Below, in pieces: positions 6,146 to 54,341 of a stretch of 64,000 nt of DNA. Position 1 is the first letter of the stretch. Every line of letters starts with the position of its first letter. Origin of the DNA: Octopus sinensis (lineage: Eukaryota); contig NC_043003.1 of assembly GCF_006345805.1 (NCBI RefSeq), forward strand, positions 16,182,001 to 16,246,000, in the 5' to 3' direction. The notes below the pieces were generated by a model. The model saw only the letters and a list, made by a program, of their open reading frames with translations, was not told the DNA's origin and made no database searches. The position numbers were made by a program, and so were the translations under genes.

Positions 6146-6330
6146 CATAATATATATATATATATATATATAGCCATCTGGTTCGCCAGCCCTCAGTCAA
6201 ATGGTGCAACCCATGCTAGCATGGAAAGCGGACATTACACGATGATGATATATATATATATATATATATAATTATTTTTTAAAAGGAGCTTCTACAGGAC
6301 TAGAACTGTTTCATTCAAAAGAAATCATCA

Positions 6331-6385
6331 AGAGCTTCCTGATGATTTCTTTTGAATGAAACAGTTCTAGTCCTGTAGAAGCTCT
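6331..6385 (+). ncRNA. Type I hammerhead ribozyme
   Basis: agagcttc-CTGATGA-t(ttc-tttt-gaa)t-GAAA-cag-ttctagtc-ctGTA-gaagctct. 8-bp helix I, 4-bp helix III, GUA cleavage after 6377. U.U mismatch at the base of helix II. Confidence 0.8.
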
Positions 6386-6485
6386 TCTATAAAATAAATT
6401 AATTTACTCTGCTATGTATTTAGTACCTTATTTACTGTGGTTAACCCCGACTCAATCCGGGACCTACATATATATATATATATAT

Positions 6486-21990: not shown

Positions 21991-22027
<37 letters not shown>

Positions 22028-22229
22028 ATATTAGGGAATAAACCAAACTTACAGGGAAAATCAGATTTAGGATTGAATCCAATTTTATAGTAAATATTAT
22101 ATTATATTAATTAGAGACAAACCACTATTAGGCAAATCATACAATGAAAAACTTAAGCCAATACATAAGATTATTTAATTTATATTATTTAAACATATAA
22201 CAAAATTATCAAAAAAATATAATTAATAT

Positions 22230-22297
22230 ATCACTACGATCGTTTCATGGCTGTTAATTTCTTTAAATTTTCGAGTTACAGTCATTCATCAGGTGGT
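22230..22297 (-). ncRNA. Type I hammerhead in family-H repeat (about 22025-22300)
   Basis: Minus strand: accac-CTGATGA-atgactgt..acagccat-GAAA-cgatc-GTA-gtgat. Palindromic ACGATCGT helix III. Flank is homologous to 43102-43445 and 62826-63143. Confidence 0.75.
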
Positions 22298-22992
22298 TTA
22301 AATATTTATTGGATGTCTGTAAGTTACAATAAAAGCACACTTCCAGAGAAAATATGAGCAGTTCTGCTTTTATATTGCCGAGAAGCTAAATTCTATCCAA
22401 TAGCATTGGTTACCACTGGTTTCACACTTACTCTTGCAATAGGCAATATTGACGACTTTTCAGACATGCTGTCCGGAAACACATAGCATCTTTAAAGCTA
22501 GAAGTAAATATATTGTCCACACACACACACACGCACACACGCACATCTATCTATATTTATACATTCATGTATATATGTACGCGTAATATATGCGTATCTA
22601 TGAATATATTTATGAATGCATATGTATATATATGCATGTTTTCTTGTTATTTTTGATATTATCTATCTATCTATTTATCTATGTATCTATCTATCTAACT
22701 ATCTATCTGTATATCTTATACTTGTTGATGCCTAATACTATTTATATATGAAATGTTAATCTATTAAAACTCCCGAAGCTTTTCTACAGCTTCTTGAATT
22801 TTGCCTGTACGCAACATTTCAGGCAGAAACCGTATATAAGTCGATGTAATATCCAAGAGAAAGCTTGTAGATTTAGAGATCAGCTACACATTAGCTCACA
22901 TATATTCGCATTCGATCTCATACATGCATATATACGTTATGTATAAATATATATATATATATGTATATATATATGTATATTATATATGTAAG

Positions 22993-35640: not shown

Positions 35641-36356
35641 TATATATATATATGTTGCATTATATTCCCTTTCTTTAAATCGTTTTGCTTGTGAAGAAAC
35701 TTTTACCATTCCTCATTTCTGACTCTGTAGAATTCATTGTGAAATAATTCACTGTCTTGTGTCGCGTGCGAAAAGCATCGATTTCCTCATTAATGACTTA
35801 ATGTGTTGCGCACTAATTAAGATTCGACGTCAACGTTCTCTATAGAAAACGAATTCTAATACTGTTCCTTCGCTAAATATATTCACAACTACGACAGAAT
35901 GTAGACATCTATACATCATTAAGTATTTCCTCCTCCAACAGGCTTTTAATGAAGCCATTACCTTTAGTCACGCACACGGACACACAGACACACACATACA
36001 TTATCATACACTTTACATTTAATATGTTAGTCTCTTTTGTATTTGCTTATATTATTTTACTTGTTTTATAATAATGACCGATTCTTTTAAGTTCAAAGGG
36101 AAGAAAATTTGTCTCGCTAACTTTAACGAGTGTCCGATGATTATAAAATAAACATCGCTTAGTTAGTTCTTTATATTTACGACCCTTGGACATTTCATAA
36201 TCGAGAGACATATTTCACTTTGTTCTGTAAGTTTAAAAACAATCGCTGGAGTTGGCTGGTCTCGAACCTTCACTACTGAGGCATCTACCGATTCGCTTGT
36301 CTGTCGTCATGTCTTGTCAACCTTGTTACGTCTAACCCCACTTCTCTGCACTAACC

Positions 36357-36588
36357 TATTTCTATACTACCCACAAGGGGTTAAACACAGAGAGGACAAA
36401 CAAGGACAGACAAATGGATTAAGTCGATTATATCGACCCCAGTGCGTAACTAGTACCTATTTAATCGACCCCGAAAGGATGAATGGCAAAGTCGACCTCG
36501 GCGGAATTTGAACTCAGAACGTAGCGGCAGACGAAATACTGCAAAGCATTTCACCCGGCGTGCTAACGTTTCTGCCAGCTCGCCGCCC
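36357..36588 (-). mobile_element. SINE family B monomer with 16-bp TSD, inside a degraded RTE-like 3' end
   Basis: TSD CTTCTCTGCACTAACC at 36341-36356 and 36589-36604. Confidence 0.9.
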
Positions 36589-36935
36589 CTTCTCTGCACT
36601 AACCACCATACCTCAACCGTCTTACTCTGAACATCATCCCTTTAATATTATTCCCTTTTGCACGTCTTTCCTGGAGATGTTGACCCGAAATAGTGTGAAT
36701 AAAACATTAACATCAATCTCGCCATATTCATATTAAGAAATTCCATGTAGACGTTCTCTTAATTTAAATTTTTGTTTTATTTTCTTACGAAAATTCTTAT
36801 GATGGATCTCCTTATCATCGAGGAACTTTCTTATTAAAAGCACATCCTTAGCCCATCTTCAAGATTAGCCCTTGTCTTTTAAGTCAGAAAATATTTCAAC
36901 CCCCAACAACAAAAGGTTCAAATGAGGCGTCATAC

Positions 36936-37538
36936 CTATTTCTTTATTACCCAGAAGGGGCTAAACATAGAGGGGGAAAGCAAGGTCAGACAAAGGGATT
37001 AAGTCGATTATATCGACCCCAGTGCGTAACTGGTACTTAATTTATCGACCCCGAAAGGATGAAAGGCAAAGTCGACCTCGGCGGAATTTGAACTCAGAAC
37101 GTAGTGGCAGACGAAATACCTATTTCTTTACTACCCACAAGGGGCTGAACACAGAGAGGGCAAACAAGGACAGTCAAACAGATTAAGTCGATTATATCGA
37201 CCCCAGTGTGTAACTGGTACTTATTTAATTGACCCCGAAAGGATGAAAGGCAAAGTCGACCTCGGCAGAATTTGAACTCAGAACGTAGTGGCAGACGAAA
37301 TACCTATTTCTTTACTACCCACAAGGGGCTGAACACAGAGAGGGCAAACAAGGACAGACAAACAGATTAAGTCGATTATATCGACCCCAGTGCGTAACTG
37401 GTACTTATTTAATCGACCCCGAAAGGATGAAAGGCAAAGTTGACCGTGGCGGAATTTGAACTCAGAACGTAACGGCAGACAAAATACCGCTAAGCATTTC
37501 GCCCGACGTGCTAACGTTTCTGCCAGCTCGCCGCCTCG
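36936..37538 (-). mobile_element. SINE family B trimer (184-bp period) with 13-bp TSD
   Basis: GAAATACCTATTTC junctions at about 37119 and 37303. TSD TGAGGCGTCATAC at 36923-36935 and 37539-37551. Confidence 0.92.
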
Positions 37539-42341: not shown

Positions 42342-43068
42342 ATGGCTACTCCTCATGAAAAGGCACAATGTGTATCCTGGTTTATTGAGACAAAATCGGA
42401 TGTTCAGACAATGTGAGAATCTGGGGATCAGAACATCCCCATGTGTCTGGGGAGCTTCAACGGGATAGTCCAAAAGTGAATGTGTGGTGTGGAATCATGT
42501 GCAATCGAATAATTGGTCCATTTTTTTTCAACGAGGCAACAATTACTGCAGACGTTTACCTCGACCTTCTGACCGAATATGTGGTACCACAACTGATTGA
42601 TTTACGACCAACCATCATTTTCCAGCAAGATGGTGCACCACCACATTGGGGACGGCATGTTCGTCAGTTCCTCAATCAAACATTTCCAGACCGATGGATT
42701 GGAAGGGATGGGTCAATTCCATGGCCAACGCGTTCGCCAGATATCTCTCCCTTGGACATCTTTTTATGGGGTTATGTAAAAGATACCGTGTATCAAACAA
42801 AGATACGAGACAATGCTGACTTGAAGCAAAGGATTCGTAATGCCATTGCTACCGTTGATGAGGCTATCCTACAGCGAACATGGCAAGAAATCGAGTACCG
42901 TCTTGATGTGCTTCGCGCAACTAATGGTCCCCATATTGAGGTCTATTAAATAACAGTTAGAAAAAACTTTAATAAACAATTATTACAATAAAACAAATCT
43001 GGTTAAGCTATCTCGTCAACTGCCTTTGTAATAAAATTTTAAAATTGTAGAGAGACTTTATGGACACC

Positions 43069-43071
<3 letters not shown>
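42342..43071 (+). mobile_element. Tc1/mariner DD41D (rosa-type) relic, internally deleted, 3' TIR intact
   Basis: MATPHEKAQCVSWFIETKS start at 42342 joined to ORF 42413-42949 with FQQDGAPPH..WPTRSPDISPLD (41 residues between D2 and D3). Ends GGACACCCTG|TA. Confidence 0.88.
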
Positions 43072-43101
<30 letters not shown>

Positions 43102-43111
<10 letters not shown>

Positions 43112-43445
43112 TATTAGAGACAAAACCACTATTTTGCAAAACAAACAAGGAAAGACTTAATCAATACATAAAATTTTAATAAATAGTCAAAAAAACCGCC
43201 ACTAAATTTGAAACTGACTTATTGGAAGTCCACCTGAAGATTGTCGATCAAGACAAGAAACAATTGTAGTGGCGGTTTTTTTGACTATTTATTAAAATTT
43301 TATGTATTGATTAAGTCTTTCCTTGTTTGTTTTGCAAAATAGTGGTTTTGTCTCTAATAATATTTTATAATATTTTACTATAAAATTGGATTTAATCCTA
43401 AATCTGATTTTTTTCCCCTGTAAATTTGGATTTATTCCCTAATAT
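43102..43445 (+). mobile_element. Family-H fold-back element with perfect about 103-bp inverted arms enclosing a hammerhead
   Basis: Arms 43102-43204 / 43267-43369, inserted in (TA)n. Confidence 0.88.
43230..43272 (+). ncRNA. Minimal type I hammerhead ribozyme
   Basis: ccac-CTGAAGA-ttgtc-gatcaa-gacaa-GAAA-caatt-GTA-gtgg. Helices I and II are fully paired and helix III is the palindrome ACAATTGT. Cleavage after 43268. Confidence 0.85.
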
Positions 43446-43576
43446 TTATTATTTTATATATATATATATATACTTTTTTTATTTAATGTATTTAATATTC
43501 TTTTGTATATCGATGTGCCTAATTTGCATATCCTTACATTCACATCTACACACACACACACACACACACACATATA

Positions 43577-43940
43577 TCTCTCTCTATATAAACGGCAGTT
43601 TGTCTGTGCGTGTTTCTGTGTGTCTGTTTGCTTGTACCCTCACCCTGACCACGGCTTTCAACCGATTCTGATGAAACTTGACACACACATAGCCCAATGT
43701 CATAATTCAAAACTAACGCAGCGAAAATTTTGAAAAGTTCCCCCAGTTCTGAAAAAAATCGATAAATTCGACATGGGGTCGAGAATGAGAAACACAAACC
43801 ACAAACTGTCTAGGGGACGCAACTCCACCTTTTTTAAATCTCAAAAAAAATTTACCATAATTTTTTTGGCTATAACTCTCTAAAAATGCTTTATAGTTAT
43901 TTCCCTTACAAACCTGAGCAACGCCGGGCGATACTGCTAG
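43577..43940 (+). mobile_element. Non-autonomous Helitron
   Basis: A|TC start, GTCTGT-type repeats and CCGATT..TGAAA near the 5' end, subterminal hairpin CCTGAGCAACGCCGGG, CTAG|T end, no TSD. Confidence 0.8.
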
Positions 43941-43944
43941 TTAT

Positions 43945-44100
43945 ATATAAAATAGTGTACATTTAAACACAAGAGAAAACTCTTTTGTGTTTAAATATAA
44001 GCTATTTTATATTGAGAATATGTTGTCTATTGACTTTTTATACATGCTAGGCCACCGGTAGTGAAATTTCTAAAAATATTCGCCATCCTATATATTTTAC
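43945..44100 (+). repeat. Fragment of the 24350 family with terminal inversion
   Basis: TAAAATAG..TTTAAACACAAGAG-aaaa-CTCTTTTGTGTTTAAA..CTATTTTA hairpin, then GCTAGGCCAC.GGTAGT.AAATTTCTAAAA as at 24470. Confidence 0.7.
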
Positions 44101-46904: not shown

Positions 46905-47138
46905 TTTATTTTTTTACTGTCCACAAGGGGCCTCACACGGAGAGAACAAACAAGGACAGACAAACGGATTAAGTCGATTGTATCGACCTCAGTGCGTAAT
47001 TGGTACTTAATTTATCGACCCCGATAGGATGAAAGGCAAAGTCGACCTCGGCGGAATTTGAACTCAGAACGTAACGGCAGACGAAATACGGCTACGCATT
47101 TCGCCCGGCGTGCTAATGGTTCTGCCAACTCACCACCT
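46905..47138 (-). mobile_element. SINE family B monomer with 14-bp TSD
   Basis: TGAAAACTGCTCTT at 46891 and 47139. Confidence 0.88.
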
Positions 47139-50368: not shown

Positions 50369-50744
50369 TCAAAAGGGTCGAGCTGACAGAATCGTTAGCC
50401 CGCCGGGCGAAATGCTTAGCGGTATTTCGTCCGCCGCTACGTTCTGAGTTCAAATTCCGCCGAGGTCGACTTTGCCTTTCATCCTTTCGGGTTCGATTAA
50501 ATAAGTACCAGTTACACACTGGGGTCGATATAACCGACTTAATCCGTTTGTCTGTCCTTGTTTGTCATCTCTGTGTTTAGCCCCTTGTGGGTAGTAAAGA
50601 AATAGTCATTTCGTCTGCCGCTACGTTCTGAGTTCAAATTCCGCCATGGTCGACTTTGCCTTTCATCCTTTCGGAGTCGATAAAATAAGTATCACTTGAG
50701 TACCTCCTCCCCGAAATTGTTGGCTTTGTGCTAAAATTTGAAAT
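50369..50744 (+). mobile_element. SINE-B chimeric dimer with 15-bp TSD
   Basis: TSD CAATATATATAACAA at 50354 and 50745, with an internal junction near 50605. Confidence 0.85.
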
Positions 50745-53921: not shown

Positions 53922-54341
53922 GCCAAGGCGGCGAGCTGGGAGAAACGTTAGCGCGCCGAGCGAGAATGCTTAGTGGTATTTTGTCTGCCGCTGCGTTCTG
54001 AGTTCAAATTCCGCCGAGGTCGACTTTGCCTTTCATTCTTTCGGGGTCGATAAATTAAGTACCAGTTACGCACTGGGGTCGATGTAATCGACTCAATCCG
54101 TTTGTCTGTCCTTGTTTGTCCGCTCTGTGTTTAGCCCCTTGTGGGTAATAAAGAAATAGGTATTTCGTCCGCCGCTGCGTTCTGAGTTCAAATTCCGCCG
54201 AGGTCGACTTTGCCTTTCATCCTTTCGGGGTCGATAAATAAGTACCAGTTACGCACTGGGGTCGATGTAATCGACTCAATCCGTTTGTCTGTCCTTGTTT
54301 GTCCTCTCTGTGTTTAGCCCCTTGTGGGTAGTAAAGAAATA
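53922..54341 (+). mobile_element. SINE-B dimer with 12-bp TSD
   Basis: TSD GGTATGTTGGTG at 53910-53921 and 54342-54353, junction near 54159. Confidence 0.9.

Follow-up and report, generated by a model that had tools for sequence, protein, structure and literature searches.

In two of three families of Penelope-like elements in Octopus sinensis, short copies end at a putative transcription start or at or just after a predicted hammerhead cut

The role of the hammerhead ribozyme motifs in Penelope-like elements (PLEs) is described as unclear, and as lacking in vivo evidence, in the parts of the literature consulted here (PMC8557442; PMC4209133). The nearest described elements are the PLEs of the Hydra clade (Craig et al., 2021; PMC8557442), for which the sections consulted likewise leave the function of the hammerhead unclear and give no map of breakpoints. 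We analyzed a 64,000-nucleotide stretch of the Octopus sinensis genome (assembly GCF_006345805.1, contig NC_043003.1, positions 16,182,001 to 16,246,000; hereafter the window), which carries a head-to-head PLE copy, and compared this copy with its relatives genome-wide. In two of three families, about one-third of the short copies start at or just after the predicted hammerhead cut, and RNA cut there has likely been copied into the genome. The short copies, or stubs, of these two families (families 1 and 2) end either at the putative transcription start or at the predicted cut, and from the distribution of these ends we consider it likely that the two positions are the 5' ends of uncut and of self-cleaved RNA templates. 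We found no comparable breakpoint map in the literature searched, which excluded most subscription papers and the supplements of PMC8557442 and PMC11167929, sources that may bear on it; the part consulted of a recent preprint (bioRxiv 10.64898/2026.07.22.740005) does not treat cut-site breakpoints.

The octopus elements resemble several known systems. With the Hydra clade they share a putative reverse transcriptase (RT), then a linker and, at the C terminus, a candidate region of GIY-YIG type, the motifs DKT, CxCX5C, CxxC and, near the end, CxH, as well as (TA)n targets, a hammerhead in the pseudo-long terminal repeat (pLTR), an inverted 5'-truncated copy and a tail at one end only; unlike the octopus elements, those of the Hydra clade have a tail of 30–40 nt rather than about 80 nt, and RWK in place of RIKWK (PMC8557442). 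Penelope of Drosophila virilis and Adineta vaga has, as here, an intron in the 5' untranslated region (5'-UTR) ending just before helix I, a TCACT initiator-like motif in the pLTR and head-to-head palindromic junctions (PMC4209133, PMC2377424, PMC3846280). The Poseidon element PAc of Anolis (Frangieh et al., 2024; PMC11167929) is similar in its two internal RT start sites, which define the tail, in its AT-rich target and in that both target strands are cut and extended in vitro. In R2 elements with a 5' ribozyme like that of hepatitis delta virus (Eickbush et al., 2013; PMC3774820; PMC11331408), the position of the cut correlates with genomic 5' junctions, which form through chance microhomology.

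At the locus in question, the maximal perfect inverted repeat was computed to be 103 bp long, with arms at 43102–43204 and 43267–43369, exactly as the original prediction had stated, and a spacer of 62 nt that, together with the start of the right arm, holds a minimal type I hammerhead motif. End positions are numbered here from 43269 = 0, the predicted cut being 43268/43269. On the plus strand lie a remnant of exon 1 (43205–43220), which comparison with another copy (L089) shows to begin 7 nt after an initiator-like start at -71 in other copies; the exon 2 part of the pLTR up to the short, tail-less 3' end (43221–43369); and a 3' tail of about 80 nt present on one arm only (43370–43452), the last two delimited by comparison of copies. 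The inverted arm, on the minus strand at 43102–43204, is a tail-less copy of 43267–43369 whose 5' end falls 0–2 nt before the predicted cut by repeat and junction analysis. (TA)n sequence, the presumed target, flanks the insertion on the left (43074–43105) and the right (43452–43472), and (TA)n insertion was also seen for other arms. In L089 (minus strand) the same exon 1 is followed by a GTAAGT donor, a 1826-nt intron, a TTTTAG acceptor and exon 2, and TCACTTC stands at -71, where the DNA ends suggest an initiator-like start site. The two exons are joined at 43220/43221 with the intron absent, and the copy therefore derives from spliced sense RNA. By its sequence it is a young head-to-head PLE stub inserted in (TA)n; among the matches listed in a DNA search of the 2.72-Gb genome with 43205–43369, 44 of 67 were fully identical over 165 nt, which supports the earlier suggestion that the identity of the arms implies a recent insertion. 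The contigs of runs X1, X2, X4 and X9 included no piece across the locus, which speaks neither for nor against presence/absence polymorphism. A 32-mer anchor from a family 1 arm gave 4284 exact genome matches (control, 0), and 2919 arms reach +4; judged by its copies, family 1 is young and abundant. On the left, the (TA)n run that bears the stub adjoins the end of a Tc1/mariner-type DDE transposase remnant (42360–43073; weak Pfam DDE_3, E 8e-4, below the cut-off).

The hammerhead motif spans 43230–43272 on the plus strand. A hammerhead cuts directly after NUH. Here stem I pairs CCAC (43230–43233) with GTGG (43269–43272), CTGAAGA starts at 43234, stem II is TTGTC/GACAA, GAAA ends at 43260, and a 2-bp stem III with a palindromic AATT loop (C-AATT-G) precedes GTA at 43266–43268, which by this rule places the predicted cut at 43268/43269 (after GUA in the RNA), the same scissile bond as had been proposed from the letters alone. 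The type I core is thus present (CUGANGA, GAAA, NUH and three stems), and U-A/A-U covariation in stem II between subfamilies supports the motif; activity is predicted. An Rfam scan gave no hammerhead match at the gathering score, and the fold is weak, being no more stable than shuffled sequences (z 0.15–0.56), as expected for minimal PLE hammerheads; weak minimal hammerheads have been described for metazoan PLEs (PMC4209133). Further CUGANGA...GAAA motifs at 1789, 21898, 27550 and 28277 may mark other hammerhead-bearing families.

To map breakpoints in family 1, the first 100 anchor matches, covering about 42 Mb of contig 1, were taken and the 5' end of each arm was located; matches found with 43205–43369, a search biased toward arms reaching 43205, were excluded from the counts. 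Twenty-two of the 100 arms are long and intron-bearing, 37 end at +5 to +28, two between -39 and +4, and the rest at -71 to -40. Merged into insertions, with L031, L058 and L077 dropped as members of another subfamily and six arms of L042 dropped because they repeat the L040 junction in tandem, they form 74 units, 21 long and 53 short, and the furthest reach of the short units falls at -71 to -40 in 27, at -39 to -3 in two, at -2 to +4 in none and at +5 to +34 in 24. This distribution is far from uniform (p=6e-8), contrary to the even spread of breakpoints that would have told against a link with the ribozyme. Adjacent arms agree with each other: 13 pairs are start/start, 13 are cut/cut and none is mixed, with six more having a much shorter partner. 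In 16 of the 17 pairs with both arms seen, one arm carries the tail and the other is short; among these 16 the short arm reaches further in seven, the tail arm in four, and the two are equal in five. That either arm may reach further speaks against a simple fold-back in which the first arm is always the same one. In one copy (L088) the two arms both end at the start site and make up a perfect palindrome.

The same pairs bear on the idea that longer palindromes later lost their centers, leaving the arms seen now, or that the arms are artefacts of long-read assembly. Perfect palindromes are generally unstable, and the assembly contains many homopolymer indels, but deletions would scatter through the core, 16 of 17 pairs combine one tail arm with one short arm, and ribozyme-skipping head-to-head junctions are seen also in contigs of two public runs (X1 and X2); we regard this explanation as hardly credible. 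A separate observation concerns L040/L042 (G000:C1, about 3.733–3.737 Mb), where a single cut-class palindromic junction recurs in four copies over 4 kb, as if the stub had been duplicated again locally.

Family 2, a sister of family 1, served as an independent replicate. It is represented in the window by a single-arm copy on the minus strand at 22022–22310 (predicted cut 22235/22234), has 2161 anchor matches genome-wide, and differs from family 1 in the sequence after the cut, in its long stem II, in its own donor (GTATGT) and in a TTAGTT start near -96. Its first 100 arms include six ending at exactly 0, 25 at +1 to +26, five at +27 to +69 and seven at -30 to -3; under stricter scoring, with its own reference left out for each copy, the same bins hold 6, 25, 5 and 9. 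Two rows (L208 and L228) were treated as internal deletions, and L210 was reset to 0 on inspection. No end falls at +1 to +3, and the spike at 0 begins on GTG. One of the six ends at 0 (L176) is explained by stem I complementarity, and the remaining ones, five in number, are more than the shoulder would give (Poisson p=0.003).

These ends weigh on two further explanations. Random 5' truncation combined with a preference for AT-rich microhomology, the ribozyme being irrelevant, finds some support in the family 1 pile, which lies on a 93% AT stretch adjoining a core of 59% AT and avoids GUGGCGG. Base composition fails to explain the family 2 pile, however, because +27 to +69 is more AT-rich than 0 to +26 (0.95 vs 0.89) and yet has few ends (5 vs 31, p=5e-9), and the spike begins on GTG; the concordance of arms and the pile at the start site also need defined RNA ends. 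We judge this explanation to be very improbable. Alternatively, RT might stall at a folded or protein-bound hammerhead without cleavage, the stalled cDNAs then being joined. This agrees with the onset of family 1 ends at +5 to +7, where both stem I and an alternative wobble helix have their foot, and with the three copies (L309, L367 and L373) in which the core is skipped by internal deletion. A stall at stem I, on the other hand, predicts ends at about +4 rather than a spike at exactly 0 as in family 2, the folds are weak, and family 3, described below, lacks ends of this kind although its stem I is the longest (6 bp), so that stalling seems improbable, if less so than random truncation.

Junctions near the cut were then collected from the whole genome with patterns for arms breaking within 7 nt of it, which gave 92 matches for family 2 and 51 and 85 for family 1; the candidates were parsed. 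Apparent point changes, identified by eye, were mostly left out, and three more rows were dropped: a candidate duplicate, an internal deletion and one that was unclear; the duplicates L335–337 and L360 were merged, and L209, L212 and L347 were moved, conservatively, to the -3 to -7 bin of furthest-reach ends. A uniform distribution predicts a ratio of 3:5 between ends at 0 to -2 and ends at -3 to -7. For furthest-reach ends the observed ratios are 33:8 in family 2 (p=2e-8) and 24:12 in family 1 (p=4e-4), or 57 vs 20 in both families (p=8e-11), whereas ends whose partner runs through the ribozyme stand at 3:5 and 2:5, together 5 vs 10 (p=0.72), as the uniform expectation has it; the contrast between the two classes is significant (Fisher p=0.005). 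L308 is a perfect palindrome with both arms ending at the cut, and L358, L360 and L276 carry short direct repeats restarting there, a pattern that RT jumping at a genuine end of the RNA would be expected to leave. In L309, L367 and L373 the deletion that removes the core stretches from exon 1 or stem I to the cut region, beside an intact partner arm, and looks like RT skipping the fold.

The copy that led to this analysis is itself poor evidence. Its left arm stops at -2, that is, 2 nt 5' of the predicted cut, and these two nucleotides (TA) match the start of the partner arm as well (natural ...CATAATTTG), so that its breakpoint is best given as -2 to 0. Its tail arm extends through the ribozyme to -64, a combination found in none of the 26 adjacent pairs, and junctions of this kind lack any preference for the cut. 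The copy's match to the cut is probably due to chance. For this copy alone, one might suppose that the inverted arm came from a cleaved RNA and its partner from a second, uncut RNA, a reading compatible with the family-level one. The breakpoint at -2 to 0 with TA common to both arms would fit, and a dimeric form of the PLE protein has been predicted (PMC11167929); against it stand the missing mixed pairs and the missing excess of cut ends in such junctions, where the two family 1 ends at 0 to -2 (this copy and L357) compare with five at -3 to -7. We consider such a two-RNA origin unlikely, though less so than stalling is for the families. The proposed link between ribozyme activity and integration is thus supported at the level of families 1 and 2, by their cut class and non-uniform ends, though hardly by the copy from which it was drawn, and cleavage is not a requirement.

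In the mechanism that we favor, in which stubs record the 5' ends of uncut and cut templates, the PLE protein would nick both strands of the (TA)n site, and two cDNAs would be primed on a single RNA, one at the tail end and the other about 80 nt upstream. Both would run to the 5' end of the RNA, be trimmed by 0–28 nt and be joined head to head, with the help of either microhomology or a template jump. In family 1 the first seven bases are G-rich and would offer little microhomology to AT-rich partners, shifting its ends to +5 and beyond. Because the cut lies about 100–180 nt from the RT start sites, a cut template would give a short, dead stub without ribozyme or promoter, and long copies would need read-through of the uncut ribozyme. 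The copy at 43102–43452 would then be an insertion from an uncut template, its short arm joined by chance at TA/AATT microhomology beside the cut.

Several points weigh against assigning the cut class to cleaved RNA. The family 1 pile begins at +5 and not at 0, with no unit at -2 to +4, and lies on the AT-rich stretch already mentioned; trimming is heavier in the cut class than at the start site (medians of 11.5 vs 5 nt, KS (Kolmogorov–Smirnov) p=4e-5). The division by partner class was chosen after the lists had been seen, and without it the per-base rates of family 1 ends, counted by eye, are alike for +4 to -6 (about 26 per 100 rows) and for -8 to -23 (about 15 per 100 rows). Since TA filler lengthens them by chance, ends at -1 and -2 were scored together with those at the cut. 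For PAc, the one in vitro study found cleavage to be dispensable: in the portion consulted, hammerhead mutants left insertion unchanged and the RNA-seq reads included none with an end at the cut (PMC11167929). Finally, no family 3 arm of the 30 mapped ends at the cut: all pass it and either break 20–50 nt upstream or continue.

Family 3, with 3946 anchor matches, is present in the window as a head-to-head copy on the plus strand (6271–6468; predicted cut 6377/6378). Its inversion near 6286 had been named as departing from the cut-site rule, and it does, breaking 5' of its own predicted cut at the CUGAUGA core. Stem II of this family closes on a U-U mismatch adjoining the core, and given this mismatch its hammerhead may cut poorly; the short 3' end, about 20 nt from the cut, may likewise suppress the cut class. 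The ends of family 3 lie at the front edge of the ribozyme, and in families 1 and 2 a spliced start site close by accounts for the pile upstream of the cut. Cleavage is not required for integration, because start-site ends are as common as cut-site ends and family 3 lacks the latter.

The element that bears these stubs is otherwise unexceptional. One copy (L082) has the structure pLTR–ORF–pLTR, the open reading frame (ORF) beginning about 57 nt beyond the tail in long copies, and another (L321:2988–5564, minus strand) has an 859-aa open frame in which DKT, YRDD, CxCX5C and a C-terminal YIG...H...C..C region were found by eye; the frame of L321 is truncated at its N-terminus, and that of L082 has a start and is frameshifted. 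L082 contains QSDKT, CTCRDKSNC, CYLC and KCRH, with RWK present as RIKWK, and a Pfam search with the element's ORF gave no families at E 0.01. The pLTRs in partial tandem, the inverted 5'-truncated copy and the tail at one end are all present (L082 and the tail/short pairs), and the 5'-UTR intron and initiator in the pLTR occur in families 1 and 2. These protein motifs match the description of the Hydra clade of C-terminal endonuclease-bearing (EN+) PLEs, a motif match rather than a placement in an RT tree, and by them the element appears to be an ordinary new member of a known group. The Naiad clade was rejected, the endonuclease motifs being C-terminal and the motif DKT, not DKA; so was a non-LTR retrozyme, as the element whose pLTR this is carries an ORF and the stubs are inverted pairs, not arrays. 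In L095, L104, L122 and L314 four extra bases stand ahead of exon 2 at a variant exon junction, perhaps marking a subfamily or an alternative acceptor.

The differences from known systems are instructive. For PAc, uncut RNA is the main substrate (PMC11167929), whereas here, in two families, about one-third of the arms in the genome have their ends at the cut or shortly after it. R2 cleavage frees a full-length template and the ribozyme is retained (PMC3774820), unlike the abortive stubs proposed here. Palindromes of Penelope have been read as self-priming on an antisense template (PMC3846280), whereas the short arms here are spliced and stop where sense transcription starts. Such arms suggest that the template was spliced sense RNA, and they bear on the origin of head-to-head inversions. 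A pile-up of insertion ends at the bond predicted to be cut would count, indirectly, as in vivo evidence for germ-line cutting by these weak ribozymes and for continued copying of the 3' product. We put forward tentatively, with somewhat less than even confidence, a broader proposal: that the stubs, in their thousands, record in vivo self-cleavage of the hammerhead; that the PLE protein primes two cDNAs on one spliced sense RNA, and that the outcome, be it a start-site stub, a cut-site stub or, after read-through of the ribozyme, a long copy, depends on whether this RNA has been cut; and that the ribozyme thus serves to brake productive transposition in a family-specific way, its activity being readable from breakpoint maps. 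That the three families differ yields a direct prediction for the bench.

The window contains other repeats. A different repeat follows a (CA)n run at 43573–43950 and ends in a short GC-rich hairpin and then CTAG, which we take to resemble a non-autonomous Helitron end. Another dispersed family occurs in both orientations, with 88–95% identity, at 36350–37530, 46907–47131, 50379–50697 and 53965–54239.
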